A stretch of 64,000 bases of DNA from an uncultured virus (IMG/VR IMGVR_UViG_3300042878_002054) (lineage: Duplodnaviria > Heunggongvirae > Uroviricota > Caudoviricetes): IMG/VR virus record IMGVR_UViG_3300042878_002054, one strand, 5' to 3'. A program made the translations under genes and the position numbers. Positions 484 through 60,149 of this stretch are shown in pieces (the first letter of the stretch is position 1; each line of letters starts with the position of its first letter). The notes under the pieces are model-generated. The model saw nothing but the letters and a program-made list of their open reading frames with translations, did no database searches and was not told where the DNA came from.

Positions 484-3400
484 CTAAACCGGAAATGATA
501 GGTTTATATCAGTAATCCAAATTTGTTTACCTCTTGCAGTGTTTCTATATCCAACAAAAAGCCATACTTTTTTAGTGGCTATTGTAGATCCCCATTGTCC
601 AATCTGCCATCTTAACTGCTTAGTAGCATTTGTTCCGTTGAAGTTGTATGTAGGTTCGTCCATTCTAGCACCCCAAGTGTCAGCGTCTCCAGAAATATAA
701 GCAAACTTGTCTGGTTTTAGATTGTCACCAGTACTATCTAAACCTAATAGTACCACTAAATCTGGTGTTCCATTTAGAGTAAAACTTCCATCAGTGTTGT
801 AAGCTTTTTCCATATCAAGCTCTCTGAAGTTTGCATTAAATGTGAAGAGTGCGTTATTGAATGTTGTACCTGCAACAGAATCTTTTGAATATGATGTAAC
901 GTGCCATTTAAAATCTACAAATGAAGTTGTTGTATAGTCACCACCACCAGCACCAGAGTCTGTAGTACTCAATCCAAGAGCAGTATAGATATCAAAAGAC
1001 TTAGTTACTCCACTTAAACTAGAGTAGTCTACCGTGGCAGTTGTGTTAGCAACTGGAAAATATTCAGTAAAGTTTGTCTGAGGATAAATAACTCTTCCAA
1101 AGATGTACTGAAGCTCATCAGTTGCAGTATTCAATGATATTATGGAACTAAAAGTTGCTGTTCCTAGCTGAGTAGTAGAAGAAGGATGAACTCCTTTATT
1201 TGAAGCACTAGATAGACCAGAAAAAGAAAGTCTTTCACTCTCACTATCCAATGGATTACTGTTATAAGTTACTGGATCTGTTGTATCAGTATCAAAAAGC
1301 ATCTTTTTTACGGATGTTGTAAATGTTGCCGCTAATCCGAAATCGTATATGTTAGATTTTGCATAAGAAAAGTTATTTGTATTCAATGTGTTTACACCTG
1401 ATGCAAAATCAGGAATGTATTGACCAGCCACATTAACGGTGGCAGTTCTTGAGAAAGTAAGTCCTGATTTATTCCAGCTTGCAGTCCACCCTGTTATGAT
1501 AGTACCTACTGAAGTTTTTGTTCCATCGGCGTATCCTTCAAGAGTTCCTGAAATCGCCATATAATAAGCGTCTATATCGATTTGTTTAGTAACAGGAATT
1601 GTTGTATCATTTAGTAAATCTATTCCAGAAACGGTAAATCCAAATGTAGAGCCGGTATCATAATAAGCAACACCTGAATAATATACCAACGCCGAAGTTT
1701 TTTCATCAAATGTGACATTACCAATAGTAGAACTAGAATCTTGTGAATCCGAACCTAAATCTATATCATAGAAAACTGCTGCAGATGAATAAGAGTAGAT
1801 ACCTACAACTGTTGCTGCAACATTGTTGTAACCAGGTCCGACACCATTGTTATCATGTTCTATCTTCCAACTAAATCTTCCACCATAAGGGAATATAGTA
1901 GCAACATCTATAGTTCCAGATACTTTTGCTTTCCATCTATCATTATCTACTGCCCAATCAGTTATTGTAAGTGTCAATCCAGGAGTTGTACTTGTATAAG
2001 CAAAGTCTCCGTTTACTGGAGTTGCTGATATTGATCTCAACACCGTTGCACCGTCTCCAGCATAAAGTGTAAAGGTAATCGATGTAGTGTCACTTGATAA
2101 AGAGAAATAAGAAGAACCTGTTGTAAATGCAGTAAGTGTTGTATTATAAACTTTAACTGAACGTGTAGTTGATGCACTAAAATCTGTTCCTACGTTCCAA
2201 GTACCTATACTATATTCACCAGGTGTTGTTCCTGCTATTAGATTACTTGTAGGATTCATAACATATCTATTTGCATCTCCCGAACCAATAGAGGGTGCAA
2301 AAAAGTTTACATAGTTAGGTGCAGGTATCCAAACCATCACCGATCCAGCCTCTACTGGATTATCTTCTGTTACAAGAACACCAGTTGCAGTAGCACCACT
2401 TGTAGGATGAACAACTACCGTATTTCCTCTGAATATTATGTTGTTTATGTTTCCGAATGTAGCACCAGTTAGATAGTCTTCAACTGTAAGTGAGAATGTT
2501 GGTCCACCACCAGATCCACCAGTTTGGTCTACCCATTGTGTATTGTAGTCTGTTCCATCTATCTTAGACAAAACCTGACCTGATGTACCACCTGAAGGAA
2601 TTCCTATACCGCTTGTTCCTGATGTTCCATCAACACCACTAGTTCCAGATGTTCCATCGATTCCGGAAGTTCCTGATGTTCCATCGATTCCGGAAGTTCC
2701 TGATGTTCCATCGATTCCAGAAGTTCCTGATGTTCCATCAACTCCGGAAGTTCCTGATGTTCCATCAACTCCTGATGTTCCTGATGTTCCCGTAGTTCCA
2801 GATGTTCCCGTAGTCCCAGATGTTCCACTTGTTCCGTCAACTCCCGATGTTCCACTTGTTCCGTCAACTCCTGATGTTCCTGAAGAACCGTCACCACCAG
2901 ATGCACCATCTAAATTCACTACAAATGTAGTTCCGGTCATTGTTCCGGTTGTAGTGACTCCAACTATGGATATTTGTCCTGTTCCTGCATCGTATGATGA
3001 TACGGTTCCTTGTATAAAGTTGTTCGTGTCTTTTGATATTATTATCGATTGAGCGGGACTGTATGCATATTCGGTTCCTATTGTAAGGTTCAAAGGGTCT
3101 GTAGGTGTTATACTACCACTATAGTCATATCTGTATTTGTCTCCTGCATATCCAGAAGTTCCTGATGTTCCTGTTGTACCCGATGTTCCTGTTGTACCCG
3201 ATGTTCCTGATGTTCCTGATGTTCCTGATGTTCCATCGATTCCGGAAGTTCCTGATGTTCCGTCAACTCCAGAAGTTCCTGATGTTCCATCGATTCCGGA
3301 AGTTCCTGATGTTCCATCGATTCCAGAAGTTCCTGATGTTCCATCAACTCCGGAAGTTCCTGATGTTCCATCAACTCCTGATGTTCCTGATGTTCCATCG

Positions 3401-4701
3401 ATTCCAGAAGTTCCTGATGTTCCACTTGTTCCGTCAACTCCTGATGTTCCTGATGTTCCGTCAATTCCTGATGTTCCACTTGTTCCGTCAACTCCTGATG
3501 TTCCACTTGTTCCTGATGTTCCCGTAGTTCCTGATGTTCCGTCAACTCCTGATGTTCCACTTGTTCCGTCAACTCCTGATGTTCCACTTGTTCCTGAAGA
3601 ACCGTCTCCACCAGATGCACCATCTAAGTTTACAATCCATGTTGCAGAAGCGTTTGTAGGAGTTCCTACAACACCACTTGAAAGTGGGTGTAAAGTGTTT
3701 CCTTTTGTGGCACTCATAGTACCAGTTCCTATATTATAAGAAGTTACCGTTGCCTCTATATAGTTTAGACTATCGATTGCAAGTATTATAGATTGTCCTG
3801 GACTATATGCAAGTCCTGCTTCTATAGAAAGTGTCCATGAAGGTTGTGAAGAATCGATAGTAAGTGTGTTTATACTTCTGTATCTATCACTGACTCCAGA
3901 AGTACCCGATGTACCATCTGACCCAGTCGCACCGGTAGCACCAATAGACCCAGTCGCACCGGTAGCACCTTTTGTGAAGGTATCTAATGTTTGTCCTACA
4001 TATTGATATGCGATTGCTCTAAGACCACCATTTACACTCTTTATAAAGTTTATTGCGTCAGCTACTCCGATATTTCTAGCAGCCTCAAACGCCGCCTTAT
4101 CCATTGTATAACCGGAACCATTTCCTAAGTCAATAGGTGTTTTACCAACGTTGAATCTGAATATTCCAGAAAAAGTATCTATGTCATAATATGCATTGTC
4201 ATATGATACAGAATTGAATTTTCCTGCAGTAGTAGGTGCATATAATATAACAGCATATCCTGTAGAAGGTGCTCCTAATAAATCGGGAATATCTGATATA
4301 TTTATTATTGGTTTTACCCATTCATCTGAAGGAATAAACTCACCAAAAGCATTTCCTAAACTAGGTGTACCAGTGTCAAGAAACCAAGATTGGTATAAAG
4401 TATTATGAAGTGGATATAGATAACCAGGTTGTCCTACAAGGTCATTTCCTAATCCGTCATTACCGACAGAACTAACCGTTCCTACTTTTCTTATTATGTT
4501 TGGATATGCGTCAGAATATGCAGAAGCAGAAGCAAAAGTATAAGCAACAGGAACATCGTCCATCCAAACTTCATTGGATCTAACATTATGAGCACTTTTG
4601 TAGTTTTCACTACCTGCATAGTTTCCATCTTTTGTGTTTACCTTACCCAACCAGTGAAAAAAGGCACCTGTTAGCTTACTATCTGGATTTATTATTGGCA
4701 T
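484..4701 (-). CDS. Large virion structural/tail-associated protein with collagen-like G-T-S repeats
   Basis: 1405 aa, Gly/Ser/Thr-rich, two GTSG(V/I)D repeat blocks; C-terminal ~670 aa paralogous to 4749..7778. Confidence 0.7.
2600..2910 (-). repeat. Tandem 9-nt-unit repeat encoding (GTS/GVD/GID/GTT)n, block 2
   Basis: gttcctgat / gttccatc units. Confidence 0.9.
3150..3622 (-). repeat. Tandem 9-nt-unit repeat encoding (GTS/GVD/GID/GTT)n, block 1
   Basis: Same units as block 2; both blocks are preceded by [16 protein letters not shown]. Confidence 0.9.
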
Positions 4702-18012: not shown

Positions 18013-18042
18013 AGAAAAGCCTACTCTTCAGTAGGCTTTTCT
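18013..18042. terminator. Bidirectional terminator
   Basis: AGAAAAGCCTACT-CTTC-AGTAGGCTTTTCT. Confidence 0.8.
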
Positions 18043-18254
18043 ATTTTGTATATCTTTTCTATTCTTGATTTTCTTCTCCAGTTCTTCATCCAGAAATCCA
18101 TATAGAATCCGTTGTTTACGGTTGTAGTTGAATATCTACTTTTAAGTGTCATTCTTGGTGAGAAATTGCTTTCTACTATTGCAGGTGTTGTACTTTGTAT
18201 TAGATAAGGAGCCCAGACTACTCCCGGACTATTTCCTTTCTTTCCTATCAGCAT
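18021..18254 (-). CDS. 77-aa protein resembling the C-terminal segment of a gp23-type major capsid protein, with C-terminal tag
   Basis: IGKKG..PGVVWAPY...NFSPRMTLKSRY resembles gp23 VGYKG..AGIYYAPY...NFQPVMGFKTRY; ends RKSRIEKIY. Confidence 0.65.
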   Translation of the reverse strand: MLIGKKGNSPGVVWAPYLIQSTTPAIVESNFSPRMTLKSRYSTTTVNNGFYMDFWMKNWRRKSRIEKIYKIEKPTEE

Positions 18255-18333
18255 TGAATATTCTTTCTATTTTTATTATTCTAAGTATATTTCTAAACTC
18301 AGAACCGAACTTCTTCTTTTTGAATTTTCCCAT
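18229..18333 (-). CDS. 34-aa tagged micro-protein (not in ORF track)
   Basis: MGKFKKKKFGSEFRNILRIIKIERIFNADRKERK*. Confidence 0.55.
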   Translation of the reverse strand: MGKFKKKKFGSEFRNILRIIKIERIFNADRKERK

Positions 18334-18472
18334 CAAATATCTTTCTTATCTTTTTGATTCTTTTCTGGGACCTAAACATTGTTCCGATATTGGGGTTGAA
18401 TTTCATATTTTCCCATTTATTACTGGAAGGGCCTCCCATTACGACTAGATTAGGATCTGGAGCACAAAACAT
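18299..18472 (-). CDS. 57-aa tagged micro-protein (not in ORF track)
   Basis: MFCAPDPNLVVMGGPSSNKWENMKFNPNIGTMFRSQKRIKKIRKIFDGKIQKEEVRF*. Confidence 0.6.
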   Translation of the reverse strand: MFCAPDPNLVVMGGPSSNKWENMKFNPNIGTMFRSQKRIKKIRKIFDGKIQKEEVRF

Positions 18473-18581
18473 TGTTTATCTTTTCTTTTCGTTTGTCTTT
18501 TCTCAACATCTTAGAAAATGCTCTAATTCCTTCAAGAATTGTTTTCTTCGTCGTTTCCGAGTGATTGTCCCAAATCGCCAT
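18450..18581 (-). CDS. 43-aa tagged micro-protein (not in ORF track)
   Basis: MAIWDNHSETTKKTILEGIRAFSKMLRKDKRKEKINNVLCSRS*. Confidence 0.6.
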   Translation of the reverse strand: MAIWDNHSETTKKTILEGIRAFSKMLRKDKRKEKINNVLCSRS

Positions 18582-18684
18582 ATATTCTTTCTATTTTTTC
18601 TTTTCTTAAAAGGTTTCGTATGGCTTTCCAATCTATTTCGAATATCGGACTTAGATAGTCACCATCATCATTAATCACTGCCAT
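18532..18684 (-). CDS. 50-aa tagged micro-protein (not in ORF track)
   Basis: MAVINDDGDYLSPIFEIDWKAIRNLLRKEKIERIYGDLGQSLGNDEENNS*; AAAC-N17-TATAA directly upstream. Confidence 0.65.
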   Translation of the reverse strand: MAVINDDGDYLSPIFEIDWKAIRNLLRKEKIERIYGDLGQSLGNDEENNS

Positions 18685-25164: not shown

Positions 25165-25192
25165 AAAAGCCTGATAGTTTTATCAGGCTTTT
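25165..25192. terminator. Intrinsic terminator
   Basis: AAAAGCCTGATA-GTTT-TATCAGGCTTTT. Confidence 0.85.
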
Positions 25193-25275
25193 AATTTAAA
25201 AATATTACTTATCTTTCGCTTTCTTTTAATATGTGTGGCATTAAAAATAAAGTGTGTGTAGTGTGGTAGTGGCAT
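25183..25275 (-). CDS. 30-aa tagged micro-protein (not in ORF track)
   Basis: MPLPHYTHFIFNATHIKRKRKISNIFKLKA*; TAATG coupling to the upstream gene; RKRKISNIF tag. Confidence 0.55.
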   Translation of the reverse strand: MPLPHYTHFIFNATHIKRKRKISNIFKLKA

Positions 25276-44044: not shown

Positions 44045-45571
44045 CTAAAGTTCTGCTTCAAGCTTCTCAATCTGGTTTTGTATGTCCTTATATTCTTCTT
44101 TTTTGTCCATCATCACCTTCTTGGCTTTCTTTCTATCTGCGTAGACATCTTCAAGCATTCTCAGTGTTGGAGAAAGTCTTTTTTCGAATACTGCACCATT
44201 CACACATAAAACATGTTTATCCAAATCGATTGGCCTACCATTATCACATTGTGATTTGTTGTTTGGATTCTGTATTCCAATGAAGTTTTCCGGTGCAATA
44301 AAGAATTGTCTTTGTGTTGTAGGATAAAGTGAGGCAAAATCGTATGTCACGCACCATCTGTTCATTCCAACTACAGGGTCTTTTACCCATCCACCAGCAA
44401 TAGTAGACTCAGCATCACCTCTATCTTCTTTAAAGAGTACGATGTTGTCTTGCTCTCTGAATCGATTTCTTAAAACTCCTTCTGTAATAGCCAAAGATCC
44501 TAAGGCGTTGTTCATCTGTGAAACTACGTCGACAATTCTAATCCTTGCTAACGATGAAATCGCATAAATGATTGATATGTAGTTTCTTGCATCGTGAATC
44601 TTTTGAACCAAAACACTATCGACCGCGTTATAATACATAAAAGTCTCAAAGTCATCTTCATAAAGCTTTTGTAAAGAACCATTGTACTTAATCTTATCAA
44701 CTCCAACTAACTTACTAGAAACAAAGTCTAAAGATGATGACTCTTTTACTTTAATAGAAGTATCACAGATTTCATACAGCTGCATGTAGTCAAAAATCAT
44801 CCTATGTGCAGGAACTTCATATTCTGTACCCCACATCTTATTGATTTTCTTTACAGGTGAAGATTCTGCAGGGTTTATCTTGTACTCTTTACCATTCATC
44901 CATTTAGAAAGCTTTCTAGATCTGTTCACTAAGAACAACCAGTCATATTGTAAGAAGTTCCATCCTGTAAGAACAGGCATCTTTGGAACCATTTTGTGAA
45001 AGAAAGCATAAAGCATATCAAATTCGTCTTCATATTTGACATATTTGAATTTATACTCTGTACCAAACTTCTCAAAATATTTGTTGGTGTTATTCAAAAT
45101 TCTTTCCTGCATATCATCAGGCATGTCTTTCAGACCAAGAAGTATAATCTTATCATCATAAACGATAGAGATAGAAAGAACTTGTGTTGAAGCACCTTCT
45201 TTTGTTACGTTTCCTTCTAAATCTTTGATATCGGCAGCTTCAGGGAATCCGTCTACAATCTCGGTCTCGATATCTATAAAGTATATCTTAGGAAGGTTAT
45301 ATTCGAATAGTTCTTCTTTTTCTGATTCTGGTAAAGCATCCATAAACTCATAGATTGCATATCTGTCTGGATGACTTACCTCAACGTGCTTAACACACTT
45401 TCCGTCCCAAGACTTAAATGTTGGATGTCTTTGAGGGTCGTCGTCTTCACAGGAAACGTACTTCATTGGGTTATCCCAGTCGTAGTATTTTAGTTTGATA
45501 TCACCGGTCTTGTCGACGTAGCTACATACTAGCTTTTTGGTGTGACTTAAAAATTGAGTTTCAATTAACAT
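44045..45571 (-). CDS. Family B DNA polymerase, N-terminal subunit (3'-5' exonuclease + motif A); split gp43-like
   Basis: FIDIET ExoI, TGWNFLQYD ExoII, YNAVD ExoIII, GGWVKDP, YDFASLYP; ends after DRKKAK without KxxxNSxYG or YGDTDS. Confidence 0.88.
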   Translation of the reverse strand: MLIETQFLSHTKKLVCSYVDKTGDIKLKYYDWDNPMKYVSCEDDDPQRHPTFKSWDGKCVKHVEVSHPDRYAIYEFMDALPESEKEELFEYNLPKIYFIDIETEIVDGFPEAADIKDLEGNVTKEGASTQVLSISIVYDDKIILLGLKDMPDDMQERILNNTNKYFEKFGTEYKFKYVKYEDEFDMLYAFFHKMVPKMPVLTGWNFLQYDWLFLVNRSRKLSKWMNGKEYKINPAESSPVKKINKMWGTEYEVPAHRMIFDYMQLYEICDTSIKVKESSSLDFVSSKLVGVDKIKYNGSLQKLYEDDFETFMYYNAVDSVLVQKIHDARNYISIIYAISSLARIRIVDVVSQMNNALGSLAITEGVLRNRFREQDNIVLFKEDRGDAESTIAGGWVKDPVVGMNRWCVTYDFASLYPTTQRQFFIAPENFIGIQNPNNKSQCDNGRPIDLDKHVLCVNGAVFEKRLSPTLRMLEDVYADRKKAKKVMMDKKEEYKDIQNQIEKLEAEL

Positions 45572-54092: not shown

Positions 54093-54650
54093 TTATTTGT
54101 TGAAAATATCGTCGATTTTTTTATCACGGATATATCCAGTCTTTAAAGAATCAAGTGTTGCTGTCCAACCATCAATTTTATTTGTTAGCCAAATTTCTGA
54201 TCTAGTGGCCATATAGCCAGAAATACTATTAGGTGCCGAATCTTTGTATTCTGACTTTACATGAAAGTCTGCAACATCTTCAGAGTCTTTATAGATGTAT
54301 TCTTTTGCTACTATTATATAGTCTATACCTAACTCGTCGATTAGTTCTTTGTATTTAGGTATAAGACCCCGACTAAGAGTCCAAAAGTCAAATATCATTA
54401 GATTAACTCTGAATCTATTTGCGGGATCTTCAATCTTAGATTTAAAATCTTCAAAGTCATTAAAAGTTATCTGTGGTGATATGTAATAAATAAGATTTGT
54501 GATGTTTTTTCCTGAAGAAGTTGGTTTTGGTGATGTGAACAATATAGGATTTCTACCATCTAATTCCAAAAATTTAACAATAGAACTTACTGCACTTGAA
54601 ACACATGCTATGTCTCCAGTAAAATAATTACAACGCTTTAGCTCTATCAT
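54093..54650 (-). CDS. Hypothetical protein (possibly degenerate P-loop fold) with C-terminal tag
   Basis: NLMIFDF Walker-B-like strand; ends IRDKKIDDIFNK. Confidence 0.65.
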   Translation of the reverse strand: MIELKRCNYFTGDIACVSSAVSSIVKFLELDGRNPILFTSPKPTSSGKNITNLIYYISPQITFNDFEDFKSKIEDPANRFRVNLMIFDFWTLSRGLIPKYKELIDELGIDYIIVAKEYIYKDSEDVADFHVKSEYKDSAPNSISGYMATRSEIWLTNKIDGWTATLDSLKTGYIRDKKIDDIFNK

Positions 54651-55095: not shown

Positions 55096-55857
55096 ATGGG
55101 ATTCAATTATAATTTCACCTATATAATCAGTTATAGACATAGTGTAGAAAGACTGAATAATCTAAAAAGAACATTGGAGTGGATAAACGCTTTTTCCGGT
55201 GCAGAGATTATTATAGTAGAACAGGACAAGCATTCAAAGCTTAAAGACATCAAATTACCATGTAGACATATTTTTATAAAATCAAACATGCCTTTCAACA
55301 AGTCTTGGGGATTCAATGTAGGATTAAAATATGCGAATTCAAACGTAATAGTATTTGGTGATTCTGATTTGATAATGGACCCACAAGAGTTTATCAAATC
55401 TGTAAAGATGTTAGACCAATACGAGATGGTCAATCCTTATAACTCTGTTATTGACCTAACTCCACAAGAATCTGGTGCCGGTTTTGAACAGATAATGCAA
55501 ATCAACAGAGCAGGTAGAGGAGAAACTGATATTCAGAAAGTTCCTTTATGTGGTGGAATCTGTATCTTTAGAAGAGAAGCTATACATAAGATTGGTGGAT
55601 GGCACGAGGACTTTATCGGTTGGGGCGGAGAAGATGATTTTCAGTCAGTTAAGGTAAAAGCATTCTTAAACTGGTATGAAAATAAAGCAAAATGTTTCCA
55701 TATCTATCACGATAGATCTGCACCAGATATGAAATGGTATCAAAGAAATCTTCAACTTCTTCAAAAACTTAGTCCAATGAATAAAGAAGAGTTGCAAAAA
55801 GTGATAAACAACGTCACTCCAAAATCAGGTTTGAAATACAAATATGACAACTTTTAA
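55096..55857 (+). CDS. Glycosyltransferase (GT2/GT7 galactosyltransferase-like)
   Basis: IIVEQ, FNKSWGFNVG, DSD, GGWHEDFIGWGGEDDF, HIYH. Confidence 0.88.
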   Translation: MGFNYNFTYIISYRHSVERLNNLKRTLEWINAFSGAEIIIVEQDKHSKLKDIKLPCRHIFIKSNMPFNKSWGFNVGLKYANSNVIVFGDSDLIMDPQEFIKSVKMLDQYEMVNPYNSVIDLTPQESGAGFEQIMQINRAGRGETDIQKVPLCGGICIFRREAIHKIGGWHEDFIGWGGEDDFQSVKVKAFLNWYENKAKCFHIYHDRSAPDMKWYQRNLQLLQKLSPMNKEELQKVINNVTPKSGLKYKYDNF

Positions 55858-56578
55858 TGATAAACTAAAATCAATCTGTAACTACTCTGAAGAAAATAAG
55901 AGTATAGGTCCAACTGCCCAATTGATGTATATGGATATGATAGTAGAAGACGACGAGACTAGAAGAGAGGTAAAGAGAAAGAAAAGAAATCTTACAATAG
56001 ACACCGTTTTAGATGAGGTAGACGAAAACGGAGACTACACATCTGAGACAATATCTTCAGAAGAAGGATCTATTGCGACAATATCTCCAAAGATCATGAC
56101 TCTAAATACTCAATCAAATCCTTTTGTAGATGATGAGAGTTTATACAATAATGTAATCACATTTTTAGAAAGTAACACAAAACAAAAACACCATTATCCA
56201 ATAAGTCTTGATTATGTGGCGATGAACGACCCACATAGTACATTAGAGGAAAACAACGCAATAAACTTCAGAAGGATTATAACAAAGATTGCACACGCAT
56301 CCAACTTTATCGCAGCAGAAGGAAGAATGGGTCCAGGAACCGCAGTGATTGTCGGTAGAAATAACTGGCATTGGTTCGATAGTCAATCAGATTTTATGCT
56401 TGGAACTATTTCTATTATATTAGATGAAAACATTAGTCCAAATAAGATTATAGTCGCTCGTGGTGGTAGAATGGATCAGAGTGGTATTATATGTGTAAAA
56501 AGTATACCAGATAATACTTATTGTCTAAAAGAAACTCCACATTGGGAAAAACAATATGTATGGTTTACTGTAAAATAA
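55844..56578 (+). CDS. Protein resembling a truncated gp23-type major capsid protein with an internal tag
   Basis: IGPTAQLMYMD; KRNLTIDTVL; FRRIITKIAHASNFIAAEGRMGPGTAVIVGRN; IILDE....KIIVARGG...SGII. Confidence 0.55.
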   Translation: MTTFNDKLKSICNYSEENKSIGPTAQLMYMDMIVEDDETRREVKRKKRNLTIDTVLDEVDENGDYTSETISSEEGSIATISPKIMTLNTQSNPFVDDESLYNNVITFLESNTKQKHHYPISLDYVAMNDPHSTLEENNAINFRRIITKIAHASNFIAAEGRMGPGTAVIVGRNNWHWFDSQSDFMLGTISIILDENISPNKIIVARGGRMDQSGIICVKSIPDNTYCLKETPHWEKQYVWFTVK

Positions 56579-56579
56579 G

Positions 56580-56604
56580 AAAAGCACTCATTTGAGTGCT
56601 TTTT
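56580..56604. terminator. Bidirectional terminator
   Basis: AAAAGCACTCA-TT-TGAGTGCTTTT. Confidence 0.85.
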
Positions 56605-57160
56605 ATGTATATTGAAGTTTTTTTGCTGGTATTCTTACCTTATCATATTTAGTAAGTAACTTATAAAGTTTTTCCCATTCTTCTTTAGGATTTCTAACGA
56701 TTCTTTCATACCATTTATTGTTGTTCTGATACTCTACAACCATTCCTATTTTAAGATCCTCTTGAGATTTTGGTTTCCAATATCTAGTCTTTTCTACAAA
56801 AGAAAATGATATTCCACTATGTATGTATGATTTGTTTGATTCGTTAGTATTGTACATTACTATCTCTAATGGTTCTTCTGAACCGTTAAAGAAAACTCTT
56901 TTGGCTTCTGACTCACCTAAATATTTTATGATTGCGTTTTTTTCGTTGAAATGTCCTAAAAGAAAAAGAACATCGTTTCTAAGTTCATCGTTGTCTGTTC
57001 TACCAAATGCCATTATTGAATCTTCGAACATACCTTCAAAATATCCTTTTATTGGAAGTATTTGATAGTTCTTTGCATACAATACTGATGTAATCTGATC
57101 CAGATTTTCAGAAGAAGAAATAAGCATGTATGAAGTGTTTGGTTGTTCTAATCCTAGCAT
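56603..57160 (-). CDS. Hypothetical protein
   Basis: 185-aa ORF. Confidence 0.75.
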   Translation of the reverse strand: MLGLEQPNTSYMLISSSENLDQITSVLYAKNYQILPIKGYFEGMFEDSIMAFGRTDNDELRNDVLFLLGHFNEKNAIIKYLGESEAKRVFFNGSEEPLEIVMYNTNESNKSYIHSGISFSFVEKTRYWKPKSQEDLKIGMVVEYQNNNKWYERIVRNPKEEWEKLYKLLTKYDKVRIPAKKLQYT

Positions 57161-57205: not shown

Positions 57206-58477
57206 TTAAAAAAGGTGAAATTCCTCATAAAGCTTTGTTTTGAATATGGCTTCGACCTCATCTCTTTTATTTCTTGGTATTATTATACTATCGTGAACAG
57301 TAACTATTTTTATTTCTGGAAAAGAATTTTTAACTTCTCGTATTATTTTATTGAAGATTAAATTAGACTCTGCTTTTTGTAGTTCATATGCCAAAACTTT
57401 ATAGTCTCCTTTTTCCTTTTTGTATAGTTTTATGAAATTGTGTATAGTTGGAAATAGTTCTCTGAACACTTTGTCTGCTTTGCTATTGTGAACGTTTCTT
57501 CCAAATAAGACTTTGTACGTCATTTCTTTGACCATAGGACGATCATTTGTCTTCATATGATTCATTACGTGTTGGTAGTAGTTTCCGTTTACCGTAAGGT
57601 CTCTAAATAGCTCAAACTCCTCGGTGTTTACCCATTTAGAGTTACTATCTGCTATTATCTTAGTAAGGAACAAAGGTTGACTATTCTTTATGTCAATCTC
57701 ATGTGTTTCCTCACCATCCAATAAAAGACAGTTCTTTCTAATGAAAGATTTTAATATAGTGAAGTTTGTGTGCATTCTTCCGTAACTATCAAAATGATAG
57801 AATATATGTTTGTCGTTCACACATTCAACAGAGTATCTGTTTCTGTTATATATGTCAGTGTCGTTGTGTTGAAGATTATCTAAATAGAATATGGCTCTAT
57901 CAAACTCTATCTTTGTATAGAATAGGTCGTCTACAAGCATCGCTTTTATATCTGCGTCTATTAATCCATTTTTTATTCCATCTTCTTCTACTTGTGATAC
58001 CTTGTTTTTGTACTTCTTCAAAAGAGTCGTGTCTTTGTTGACGTATCTCTTTATTTTTCCTTTAAGTATGTGTTCTGATATCTTATAGACTTTGGCGTTT
58101 CTACCTGCTCTATAGTTTGCGACCATAGATATGGTCTTCGTTTCTATTAGATAGTCCATATAGTAGTTGTATAGGTGTCCGTACTTCTCTTTGAGAATGG
58201 TGGACATGAGATGAAATCTGTTGTCTTTTTTGAAATAGTATTTCAGTATTAAGTTGTGGACTATATCTAAAGCATATGAAGACTTTAGTTTTTGACCTTT
58301 ATATTCGAAGTTTTTGTTTTTTGAAAATTCCTCCATCGATTCTGGTAAAAACTGAAGACTGTGTTTTTTGTCTTCTAGTTTCTTTCTGATATTGGAATAG
58401 CCACTGATTTTGAATAATGGTACGATTGAATTTTCACTCATACATTTTATATCCACTAGTTCAGGATATGTTTTCAT
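57206..58477 (-). CDS. Compact PolA/T7-RNAP-like palm-domain protein with putative N-terminal winged helix
   Basis: YGRMHT, EIDIKNSQP, R..VK...YKVLFG, FPTI, LQKAES, VTVHDSII. Confidence 0.55.
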   Translation of the reverse strand: MKTYPELVDIKCMSENSIVPLFKISGYSNIRKKLEDKKHSLQFLPESMEEFSKNKNFEYKGQKLKSSYALDIVHNLILKYYFKKDNRFHLMSTILKEKYGHLYNYYMDYLIETKTISMVANYRAGRNAKVYKISEHILKGKIKRYVNKDTTLLKKYKNKVSQVEEDGIKNGLIDADIKAMLVDDLFYTKIEFDRAIFYLDNLQHNDTDIYNRNRYSVECVNDKHIFYHFDSYGRMHTNFTILKSFIRKNCLLLDGEETHEIDIKNSQPLFLTKIIADSNSKWVNTEEFELFRDLTVNGNYYQHVMNHMKTNDRPMVKEMTYKVLFGRNVHNSKADKVFRELFPTIHNFIKLYKKEKGDYKVLAYELQKAESNLIFNKIIREVKNSFPEIKIVTVHDSIIIPRNKRDEVEAIFKTKLYEEFHLF

Positions 58478-58689
58478 GATTCGTAAATTTTGCGAACCTT
58501 TGATCTTCTACCTGAAGTTCTGTTAATATCCTTCCATTCTTTCATAAGAGTTGCCTCTATTTCAGAGACATGGTCCATACCATACATACTCTGTAAATCA
58601 GTCGCTAGCTCGCGGGTCCATTGAGCACGCAAAGGTCTTGTCTCTGTTTTTACTTCAACAGAGGTCATCTTTAAATCTATAGATTTCAT
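58474..58689 (-). CDS. 71-aa protein resembling the central helix segment of a gp23-type major capsid protein, with C-terminal tag
   Basis: TRPLRAQWTRELATDLQSMYGMD..SEI...L..E...INR resembles gp23 SRQLKAAYSIELAQDLRAVHGMDADAEL..IL..EI..EINR; ends RRSKVRKIYES. Confidence 0.75.
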   Translation of the reverse strand: MKSIDLKMTSVEVKTETRPLRAQWTRELATDLQSMYGMDHVSEIEATLMKEWKDINRTSGRRSKVRKIYES

Positions 58690-60059
58690 TATTTGATTGG
58701 AGCTTTAGGTTCTTCTTCTACTACTTGTTCTTCAGGAATCGCAGGTCCTTTACCACCTTTACCTTTTTTCTTTTTGTCTGTCGCAGCACCTTTTGTGAAC
58801 TCATCATATACGTCAGGATAAACTTCACCTTCCGCATCAGTATCGTATTGAATATCGAAGAAATCACCAAAGTCTAATAAACCAGACCTCGTAAGTTCAA
58901 GTTCATGAATCTTATTTAGATAGTTATCAATGTGTTTACTGATATCATCTATGAAAAGATTTAAAAGTTTTACGGTATTTTCTGTAAAAACTCCGATTGG
59001 TTTTTTTCTTTTTTTGTTAAAAGAACCTAATATCACTTTGAATATGTACTCAAGTTTTGGACTTTCGTTTATGTATTCTTTTGTAAGTTTATTTTCAATC
59101 AATTCTGTGTTTATCTTAAACTTGTCTTTATCAAAAAATTCAGGAACTATAAACTCAAAATCTAATAAGTCTTGTTTTAGTTCTCCAATATAGAAGTTAA
59201 AAAGTTTACACATCAAATAGATATAGATGTCATCTTTTTTCTCTCCTTTCATTTTTATATCCTTTAAGTCTATCGATTGACAGAAATTCAAAAAGTTCAC
59301 TAATATCAAAGTGTATATTTCAACAAAGTCGGTGCTATTTGAATCACTTACTCTTGTGTAGAGAGGGTTTAAAAGTTCAAAAGAAACATCTTTTATTTTT
59401 GATCGAATTATTAACTTTTCAATGTTTGATTGGAATTCGTCTTCCATTAAGAAAGAGTTTTCTGATGCAGGATTAAGTATTTTGTAAAAGAAGAAAGCAA
59501 AGTTTTTTTCTCCAAAAACATATTCTAAATCTTCTTCACTTGTATTTAAGAAGTATTTAATGGCTTCTATCATTCTTTCTGATAAAACACCTTGAAACAT
59601 TATAGGAAGCATATCTACATCAAACAATCTAGCATATTCGTCTATCTCATCTATGATAAAATCATACTTTCCACTTTTATAGATTGCACTTAAAACAAGT
59701 TTGTTCTTAGGCATTCTTTCATATTCAATGTTTGCTGGTTGGTTGTCCGGAAAGTATTCAAAACAAAACCACCATTTTTTGTTCAAAAGAGATTTTACTC
59801 TTATATCTAAAGAGTTAAGATAATCTATTGCAGGATTGTAATAATTCTGCATTGCCAAATCGACAAGATTTATTTCTTGATTGCTTATAGACTTTGGTTT
59901 GATAGAAAAGTCTTTTCCATTCCAGTTTGCCCAGATTTTTGATCCTTGAACGTCTTCGAATACAACTATTTCGTTTGCGAAAATTTCGTCTAACAAAGTT
60001 TGACTTTCGGTTTCGTTAAGATTTATCAGTTTTCCCATATTTTTGTTATAGTCTTCCAT
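58689..60059 (-). CDS. Hypothetical protein with possible degenerate RNA-ligase (nucleotidyltransferase) fold
   Basis: VFEDVQGSKI resembles EKxDG without the Lys; FCFEYF; IEKLII; likely start at 60059 or 60038. Confidence 0.55.
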   Translation of the reverse strand: MEDYNKNMGKLINLNETESQTLLDEIFANEIVVFEDVQGSKIWANWNGKDFSIKPKSISNQEINLVDLAMQNYYNPAIDYLNSLDIRVKSLLNKKWWFCFEYFPDNQPANIEYERMPKNKLVLSAIYKSGKYDFIIDEIDEYARLFDVDMLPIMFQGVLSERMIEAIKYFLNTSEEDLEYVFGEKNFAFFFYKILNPASENSFLMEDEFQSNIEKLIIRSKIKDVSFELLNPLYTRVSDSNSTDFVEIYTLILVNFLNFCQSIDLKDIKMKGEKKDDIYIYLMCKLFNFYIGELKQDLLDFEFIVPEFFDKDKFKINTELIENKLTKEYINESPKLEYIFKVILGSFNKKRKKPIGVFTENTVKLLNLFIDDISKHIDNYLNKIHELELTRSGLLDFGDFFDIQYDTDAEGEVYPDVYDEFTKGAATDKKKKGKGGKGPAIPEEQVVEEEPKAPIK

Positions 60060-60116
60060 TTGATTTTTGTTTTTTATCAATAGGTTATATATATAAAATT
60101 GATATGGTGCTTTTTT

Positions 60117-60143
60117 AAACAAACATGTCGGGTACATATATAA
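60117..60143 (+). promoter_or_regulatory. Putative middle promoter AAAC-N18-TATAA
   Basis: Upstream of the glycosylation operon. Confidence 0.45.
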
Positions 60144-60149
60144 TGTCAT

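Follow-up and report, generated by a model that had tools for sequence, protein, structure and literature searches.

A conserved 71-residue mini-gene of a huge phage that resembles a slice of a gp23-type major capsid protein

The mini-gene and its operon

The window analysed here is a stretch of 64,000 nucleotides from an uncultured virus of the class Caudoviricetes (IMG/VR record IMGVR_UViG_3300042878_002054). On its minus strand, at 58474-58689, lies an intact open reading frame (ORF) with an ATG start that encodes only 71 amino acids (aa). Its product, the mini-protein, resembles an internal piece of the T4 capsid protein gp23 and ends in a basic, helical motif, referred to hereafter as the tag, which recurs in other small ORFs. 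An earlier note, made from the sequence alone, had already described this mini-gene as a stand-alone fragment of a gp23-type capsid protein, kept intact, translationally coupled on both sides and carrying a shared tag. The features discussed are listed in Table 1.

The source phage belongs to a Mahaphage-like group of huge phages with genomes of about 600 kb. A 70-aa orthologue of the mini-protein, with 77% identity and in the same gene order, is found on two IMG/VR contigs (loci L008 and L009), whose CheckV completeness (16% for the contig of 94.7 kb, 23% for that of 134.6 kb) corresponds to a genome of about 590 kb. More distant relatives are LR745206 (634,780 bp) and LR756502 (642,428 bp); in size they agree with, and are presumably identical to, the complete genomes of 634 kb and 642 kb that Al-Shayeb et al. 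(PMC7162821) assign to the Mahaphage clade, with predicted Bacteroidetes hosts. A megablast search of the phage collection with 6 kb of the window gave no match. At a distance of about 18 kb from the mini-gene, both contigs also carry a Gp23-family gene of full length (567 aa, 97.9 bits), and, judging by this spacing, the window's own capsid gene would sit past the window end; the capsid comparisons reported below use the full-length capsid proteins of relatives in its place.

The mini-gene is packed between two larger genes of the same strand. On the upstream side, the TAA that ends the 486-aa ORF runs into the start codon of the mini-gene (TAATG); on the downstream side, the 423-aa ORF begins with an ATG that overlaps the TGA of the mini-gene (ATGA). 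The coupling proposed for both sides stands for the upstream one, where the junction AAATAATGAAA with the 486-like gene is identical in all five loci examined, but it does not generalize downstream, where the ATGA overlap is confined to the window and its closest relative, L009. The mini-gene is an internal member of a four-gene operon, since a hairpin terminator follows the 185-aa gene and none that is convincing was found by the terminator scan between the four genes, the sole other minus-strand match lying inside the 486-aa coding sequence. The labels of the 486-aa protein (RNA-ligase-like) and the 423-aa protein (polymerase palm-like) come from language-model features only and are leads; neither protein has a match in Pfam, PHROG, PDB sequences, PADLOC or NCBIfam. 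By eye, the 423-aa protein shows palm-like motifs and the 486-aa protein has a low-complexity Lys/Gly/Glu tail.

This arrangement suggests that the mini-protein could act as an accessory subunit of the co-translated RNA-ligase-like and polymerase-like proteins, as would fit both the start/stop overlap with the 486-like gene in five of five loci (in LR745206 the mini-gene lies 1 base after a 440-aa ORF and before a 418-aa ORF) and an operon free of internal terminators. Nevertheless, tight packing is usual in phages, the other tagged mini-ORFs described below follow unrelated upstream families, and such a role leaves the capsid homology unexplained, so that it is regarded as very unlikely.

Six RNA libraries contain small shares of the window sequence, and in the four that were mapped, contigs 90-99% alike cover the genes that flank the mini-gene, while no RNA-library contig covers the mini-gene itself at a likeness of at least 90%; as these are contigs and not reads, expression is neither shown nor excluded by them. 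In one RNA-library assembly of a relative, a contig running along the 423-aa gene departs from the window at 58508 and its successor begins at 58690, so that most of the mini-gene lacks a contig of 90% likeness there.

Table 1. Features of the window discussed in the text (AF2, AlphaFold2; HMM, hidden Markov model; pLDDT, predicted local distance difference test; dN/dS, ratio of nonsynonymous to synonymous substitution rates)
Feature	Position	Strand	Basis
71-aa mini-gene, gp23-type major capsid cut-out plus C-terminal helix motif	58474..58689	-	ORF, Pfam Gp23, family of short proteins, dN/dS
Strand part, residues 1-25; equivalent to the basic P-domain beta-strand of T4 gp23 (~252-271)	58615..58689	-	Alignment; extended without partner in AF2 model
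Short helix, residues 26-36; equivalent to the short acidic P-domain helix of T4 gp23 (~272-282)	58582..58614	-	AF2 helix, alignment, conserved E27 and D31
Long helix, residues 40-70; spine-helix equivalent, runs through the tag	58480..58572	-	AF2, pLDDT 86-92 mid-helix; hhalign to clade capsid ~351-380
Shared C-terminal tag, residues 55-69	58483..58527	-	Basic residues, then I/V-x-K/N-I-F/Y; tag HMM 13.8 bits
486-aa gene upstream, RNA-ligase-like (lead only); stop overlaps mini-gene start	58689..60149	-	Atlas feature matches 0.93-0.94 to RNA_ligase clusters
423-aa gene downstream, family-A polymerase palm-like (lead only)	57206..58477	-	Atlas nearest cluster 0.97, automatic name family A palm domain
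185-aa gene, last of the operon	56603..57160	-	Synteny in all relatives; terminator directly after
Bidirectional terminator hairpin where the 185-aa and 244-aa genes converge	56579..56604	.	Consensus scan, 10-11 base-pair stem on both strands
244-aa mini HK97-fold protein, second capsid derivative in the conserved block	55844..56578	+	BLASTP, AF2, Foldseek
77-aa tagged mini-gene, copies capsid C-terminal part (T4 gp23 ~436-479, P-loop region)	18021..18254	-	Pfam Gp23, clade capsid HMM
Three more tagged mini-ORFs in overlapping frames (18532-18684, 18450-18581, 18299-18472)	18299..18684	-	Tag HMM 11.6-14.2 bits
30-aa tagged mini-ORF, followed by hairpin terminator	25183..25275	-	Tag HMM 13.1 bits

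Relationship to gp23-type capsid proteins

The likeness to gp23 is well supported by profile searches. The mini-protein matches the Pfam family Gp23 (PF07068) with an expectation value (E) of 1.3e-9 and 38.4 bits, against a curated cut-off of 24.4, its residues 2-56 corresponding to positions 132-187 of the 376 of the profile, and the corresponding E for PHROG 138 (major head protein) is 3.3e-9. The T4 gp23 segment that the earlier note had quoted agrees with the T4 letters in the profile alignment. In a tblastn search of 50,697 phage records, 1884 records match the mini-protein, all at less than 60% identity; among the 40 rows listed, 35 are annotated as major capsid/head or head-vertex genes of T4-like phages, four are named 'hypothetical protein' and one is unannotated. 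A profile of 42 family members aligns to residues 252-303 of the solved T4 gp23 (6uzc_a) at E 1.6e-8 and to residues 169-218 of gp24 at E 0.0033, and 36 of these 42 members match Pfam Gp23 independently at E <= 0.01.

A single-sequence BLASTP comparison of the mini-protein with the clade capsid protein gives no match, and alignment of the family with 21 clade capsid proteins by hhalign (E 3.6e-5, probability 71.5%, 65 columns) pairs residues 4-71 of the mini-protein, tag included, with clade capsid residues 316-380. When one family profile was used throughout (hmmsearch), T4 gp23 scored 36.6 bits, the clade capsids 21.7-25.0 and gp24 20.0; the alignment extends to profile position 57 in T4 gp23 and to position 67, which takes in the tag, in the clade capsids. 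By these bit scores, the strand and the acidic helix of the mini-protein resemble canonical gp23 more than they do the capsid protein of the phage itself, while the helix end resembles, in the alignments, the clade's own capsid protein only.

An AF2 model built with the family alignment shows residues 1-25 extended, followed by helices at 26-36 and 40-70 (mean pLDDT 80, predicted template modelling score 0.35), from which the mini-protein is predicted to have no globular fold of its own. The residues R18, W24, T25, E27, D31 and D39, each conserved in 90% or more of the members of an 11-sequence subset, align to R264, Y270, S271, E273, D277 and D285 of T4; in the full 42-member alignment R18 alone stays at or above 90%. 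According to the alignments, the mini-protein is a contiguous gp23-type cut-out comprising a P-domain strand, a short acidic helix and the spine helix; its sequence homology to T4 gp23/gp24 (PF07068, HK97 fold; PDB 6uzc, 5vf3, 1yue) takes in the strand, the acidic helix and the first half of the spine helix. It is thus a homologue of the Gp23 family and not a capsid subunit, the full HK97 fold (A and P domains, P-loop, N-arm) being absent: with 71 aa against the 521 of T4 gp23, it cannot form a shell subunit because it lacks the A domain, the insertion domain, the P-loop and the N-arm. It differs from gp23 also in its basic C-terminal motif and in being encoded apart from the full-length capsid gene.

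The copied part has a defined place in the T4 capsid. In the description of that capsid by Fang et al. (2022; PMC9546572), P loops touching one another and charge contacts of the short acidic P-domain helix with basic P-domain strands join neighbouring capsomers near the quasi-threefold axes, the head-length mutations A268V, A275T, D285V and D287V/N adjoin the short acidic helix, and G292, V306 and V307 belong to the spine helix. The sites of these four sets of head-length mutations fall within the segment copied by the mini-gene, and the numbering in the profile alignment fits these residues.

Conservation and selection

The mini-protein belongs to a family of proteins that are themselves short. 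A phmmer search of 1.84 billion cluster representatives gave 49 matches at E <= 1e-3, 46 of which are 41-110 aa long; the other three are long repeat proteins and were judged spurious. The 46 diverged short representatives have conserved residues and length in common. The short ORF with the same neighbours is kept in seven IMG/VR loci from seven contigs, and the short ORF is also kept in two complete huge-phage genomes, which answers in the affirmative the question, raised with the first description, of whether relatives conserve it. The gene order (486-like, mini-gene, 423-like, 185-like and then, on the opposite strand, 244-like and glycosyltransferase) is shared by the six loci L009-L014, except that L011 has no 244-like ORF at E <= 1e-3. 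The family profile detects the short ORF, intact, in each of five related records, and in the four records where it also matches the full-length capsid gene it scores that gene below the short ORF. A further match of this profile, at LR745206:144586, was discarded as spurious, the 417-aa ORF concerned being kinase-like by eye and not a vertex protein.

Across L010-L014 (L012-L014 gave identical values in every comparison), identity to the window is 41-48% for the mini-protein, 71-76% for the 486-aa protein, 57-70% for the 423-aa protein, 52-63% for the 185-aa protein and 32-33% for the 244-aa protein. Compared with its nearest relative, the mini-gene shows proportions of nonsynonymous and synonymous differences of 0.105 and 0.43 (pN and pS) and a dN/dS of 0.18, a value from a small sample of about 70 codons, with the neighbouring genes at 0.04-0.18 where dS could be estimated.

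No other piece of a capsid gene was found beside the mini-gene. When five clade capsids, T4 gp23 and gp24 were compared with the six frames of the 64 kb by tblastn, only three capsid-like places appeared (18117-18254, 55961-56497 and 58519-58653), the last of them matched by T4 gp23 alone (37% identity over 46 aa, E 3.4e-4); an HMM of the clade capsids, run over all 2360 stop-to-stop frames, detected the first two places only. The flanking frames, where the earlier note had proposed to look for the rest of a frameshifted gene, are therefore free of capsid remains in both searches.

These data bear directly on the idea that the mini-gene is a dead remnant of a duplicated capsid gene. Such an origin would suit its coverage of only 56 of the 376 profile positions and its faster evolution than that of its neighbours. 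However, the ORF is intact in all relatives examined, including genomes whose neighbour proteins are only 30-70% identical, and the dN/dS value, the residues and length retained by the 46 short representatives and the clean flanks all speak against decay, which makes a remnant the least probable of the explanations considered here. The mini-gene is a selected, conserved small protein gene, as had been proposed when it was called a kept gene and not a pseudogene.

The shared C-terminal tag and other tagged mini-genes

To follow the tag, a 15-residue HMM was trained on 33 members of the mini-gene family, a score of at least 8 bits being taken as a pass. Six of the 722 window ORFs of 20-130 aa pass, compared with none of 722 reversed controls, so that the shared tag noticed at first reading is real. 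The six are 58474-58689, which belongs to the training family, and five that do not: 18021-18254, 18299-18472, 18450-18581, 18532-18684 and 25183-25275. None of the 533 ORFs of at least 150 aa in the window and LR745206 together reaches this score. Many tags follow the pattern S/K, hydrophobic, x, x, hydrophobic, F/Y. In the mini-gene family the tag pairs by hhalign, with which hmmsearch agrees, with the end of the clade capsid spine helix, and here it is probably capsid sequence. The possibilities that the tag is a by-product of the start of the next gene, or a frameshift or bypass signal, were set aside because the motif is kept where the next gene lies at least 33 bases further on or where a terminator follows, and because the codons differ between copies. 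None of the T4 core proteins gp67, gp68 and gp22 ends in the tag. Below the threshold, a 185-aa protein encoded at 54093-54650 (minus strand) has a tag-like end (3.7 bits), as has a 187-aa ORF of like size in LR745206 (5.1 bits), and tag-like ends are therefore not strictly confined to mini-proteins.

At least one other tagged mini-protein of the window is, on profile evidence, a slice of a different part of the capsid protein. The 77-aa product of 18021-18254 matches Pfam Gp23 at positions 304-368 with E 1.2e-4 and 22.1 bits, which falls slightly short of the cut-off, and it matches the clade capsid HMM at E 5.5e-9. The T4 stretch to which it corresponds, numbered through the alignment of T4 and clade capsids, includes A455, T457, R460 and G461, which form the P-loop group of T4 head-length sites, with mutations T457A, R460C and G461S (PMC9546572). 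It has 69 short relative clusters of 51-80 aa in a collection of 5.8 billion proteins and short counterparts in LR745206, LR756502 and a further relative, G003.

This gene is the last of an array at 18021-18684 (minus strand) of five overlapping mini-ORFs, four of which pass the tag HMM; the fifth (18229-18336, 35 aa) ends in what looks like a tag by eye only. Where one tag finishes, the ATG of the following mini-ORF is found, one frame further each time, and a hairpin terminator follows the array. The mini-ORFs of 18299-18684 have no significant capsid likeness by the clade capsid HMM; for 18299-18472 and 18450-18581, which by eye had been taken for capsid slices, hhalign gave E 0.4 each, which lends this idea no support.

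LR745206 was searched whole; it has 6825 ORFs of at least 20 aa, and those no longer than 130 aa were scored. Nineteen reach 8 bits with the tag HMM, compared with two reversed ones, and 16 compared with none reach 10 bits. Three of this set match Pfam Gp23 (E 2e-4 to 6e-3) at positions 132-163, 164-194 and 308-356. Two match a 707-aa scaffold-like repeat protein whose gene directly precedes the capsid gene (E 2.7e-21 and E 0.009), one has 10 of 11 residues of a motif of the DNA-polymerase ORF (E 1.3e-4) and one has a weak match to Pfam Portal_T4 (E 0.048). For the remaining tagged mini-ORFs of LR745206, no source protein was found; resemblances of some to a terminase Walker A and a polymerase motif B were seen by eye only and are not confirmed by Pfam. 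Most of the tagged ORFs begin between -28 and +5 bases from the end of an upstream gene of the same strand, the upstream families being unrelated.

Several observations accompany these source proteins. The gene just upstream of the capsid gene (L004:1-1143; LR745206:198546-200669) encodes a long protein of tandem 14-residue repeats, which may be the scaffold. The DNA-polymerase ORF of the window (44045-45571, minus strand) has only 508 aa, and the motif copied in the LR745206 mini-ORF is located towards its end, at residues 411-421; it may be that two genes share the polymerase in this clade. A 35-aa tagged ORF of LR745206 (261394-261501) has, by eye, the same first four residues as 25183-25275.

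That 19 mini-ORFs of LR745206 and six of the window, otherwise unrelated, carry one motif at their C-terminus or close to it would also be expected if the tag docked onto a single hub protein, the mini-protein being then a tethered regulator or competitor whose capsid slice acts as a sensor. The form of the tag, a hydrophobic/aromatic hexapeptide-like motif at the extreme C-terminus of unrelated proteins, recalls the clamp-binding tails of T4 gp43 and gp55. Contrary to these tails, however, it is strongly basic and aligns to the capsid's own spine-helix end, so that in the mini-gene family it may be plain capsid sequence. In addition, the DNA-polymerase ORF of the window does not end in the tag, and the sliding-clamp families PF02916, PF09116 and PF02768 match none of three related records (two of them complete), although a divergent or host clamp is possible. 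Taken together, a hub-docking regulator is considered improbable, if less so than an accessory subunit.

Proposed mode of action

The reading that we favour, with a probability of only about 0.3, is that the mini-protein is a trans-acting mimic of the capsomer-edge module, with the tag as a common handle. It is preferred because the copied slice makes capsomer-to-capsomer contacts in T4. The free copy of the capsid edge would dock on gp23-type subunits, either of its own phage or of a co-infecting one, and, once docked, would tune or block lattice contacts during head assembly, while a further partner would hold all tagged mini-proteins by their shared C-terminal helix. A role in conflict or interference is consistent with the profile scores, in which T4 gp23 ranks above the capsids of the phage's own clade. 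Prediction of a complex between clade capsid residues 85-567 and the mini-protein of the same contig gave a score of 0.00, and, having been run without controls, carries no weight either way. The earlier note had put forward three possible roles, a decoy for capsid-sensing immunity such as CapRel and Lit, an inhibitor of the assembly of competing phages and an adaptor that binds capsid subunits, all of which are still candidates.

Several points weigh against this proposal. Identity among the capsid proteins is 75-78% in comparisons that give only 41-48% for the mini-proteins, and capsid residues 316-380 are almost invariant in 21 sequences; such fast evolution beside a near-invariant segment is unexpected for the partner of a fixed surface. 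In LR745206 the tag is found also on scaffold-like slices and on a polymerase-motif slice, so that an action on the capsid alone would leave part of the set unaccounted for. The partners of the mini-gene in its operon are RNA-ligase-like and polymerase-like, not head genes. Moreover, both copied capsid segments are the best-conserved parts of Gp23, and detection by profile may partly explain why this pair was found. The binding to the capsid is itself only proposed.

In a different function, tagged slices of hallmark proteins would occupy or mislead the sensors of host immunity, and the tag would provide all of them with one effector or handle. The classes represented among the possible sources (capsid, scaffold, polymerase and portal) overlap those sensed by defence systems, and the tagged slices do derive from capsid, scaffold-like and polymerase proteins and, weakly, portal. 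The fast evolution of the mini-gene relative to neighbouring genes, and an N-terminal part nearer to canonical gp23 than to the phage's own capsid protein, are also in line with a decoy. On the other hand, the region copied by the mini-gene (gp23 252-303) is not the known trigger of the protease Lit, the Gol peptide, which lies near gp23 residues 93-122. PADLOC assigned no family to the mini-protein or to its four neighbours (E <= 1), and a slice of 50 residues is unlikely to mimic a folded epitope. We regard a decoy as unlikely, although less so than a hub-docking regulator.

A broader scheme, which we put forward as doubtful but worth stating, would treat all tagged mini-genes as parts of one system. 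Each genome of a Mahaphage-like huge phage would hold a couple of dozen conserved mini-genes, in which slices taken from the hallmark proteins of the phage itself (capsid, scaffold, polymerase and perhaps portal and terminase) are joined to a single docking helix, derived from the end of the capsid spine helix and recognized by one reader. The slices would report on their parent proteins or compete with them, in assembly or in the control of expression, or else would disarm sensors or rival phages. The 71-aa gene would then represent the founding type, in which slice and tag form one contiguous piece of the capsid protein.

Relation to known systems and significance

Apart from the capsid proteins and clamp-binding tails compared above, two T4 systems offer partial parallels. 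One is the Gol peptide and the Lit protease of e14, in which a short stretch of gp23 acts alone on another protein. Gol, however, lies inside full-length gp23, whereas the mini-gene is separate, copies residues 252-303 and has no known Lit-like partner. The other is the capsid-targeting sequence of the T4 internal proteins, a short peptide common to several unrelated small phage proteins which, as described (PMC9958956), is N-terminal, of about 10 residues and cleaved, in contrast to the C-terminal, basic and helical tag of the mini-genes.

Searches of full text in PMC and bioRxiv, a corpus outside which most subscription journals fall, found neither capsid slices that stand alone nor a tag shared between such slices. 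The design seen here, conserved mini-genes made of slices of the virus's own essential proteins plus one shared helix, was likewise not met in this literature. The mini-gene bears on how very large capsids set their size and curvature, for here the element that sets capsomer contacts in T4 and holds head-length mutations is retained as a free copy by a phage whose genome measures about 600 kb. If the mini-protein does act on lattice contacts, it would provide a handle on size control or on interference with assembly between phages.

Other genes of the window

The 244-aa protein encoded convergently with the operon is a second relative of the capsid protein. It matches the clade capsid protein by BLASTP at E 8e-10, and in tblastn its residues ~40-218 correspond to capsid residues 331-511. 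Its AF2 model (pLDDT 80) has T4 gp23/gp24 and HK97 gp5 as top Foldseek matches (E 2e-6, probability 1.0), and 109 clusters of relatives are known for it. This gene adjoins the mini-gene block in nearly all relatives (it was not found in L011) and evolves as fast as the mini-gene; its product may be a vertex protein, an encapsulin-like shell protein or something else. The idea of a split capsid protein, in which the mini-protein would supply a spine helix lacking from the 244-aa protein, was dropped because the latter, in its model, already contains a strand and a long helix (E24-35, H37-57) and aligns with HK97-fold chains over their whole fold.

At the other end of the window, a 1405-aa ORF (484-4701, minus strand) shows collagen-like tail-fibre matches and is located in a stretch whose G+C content is raised (0.43, compared with about 0.33).

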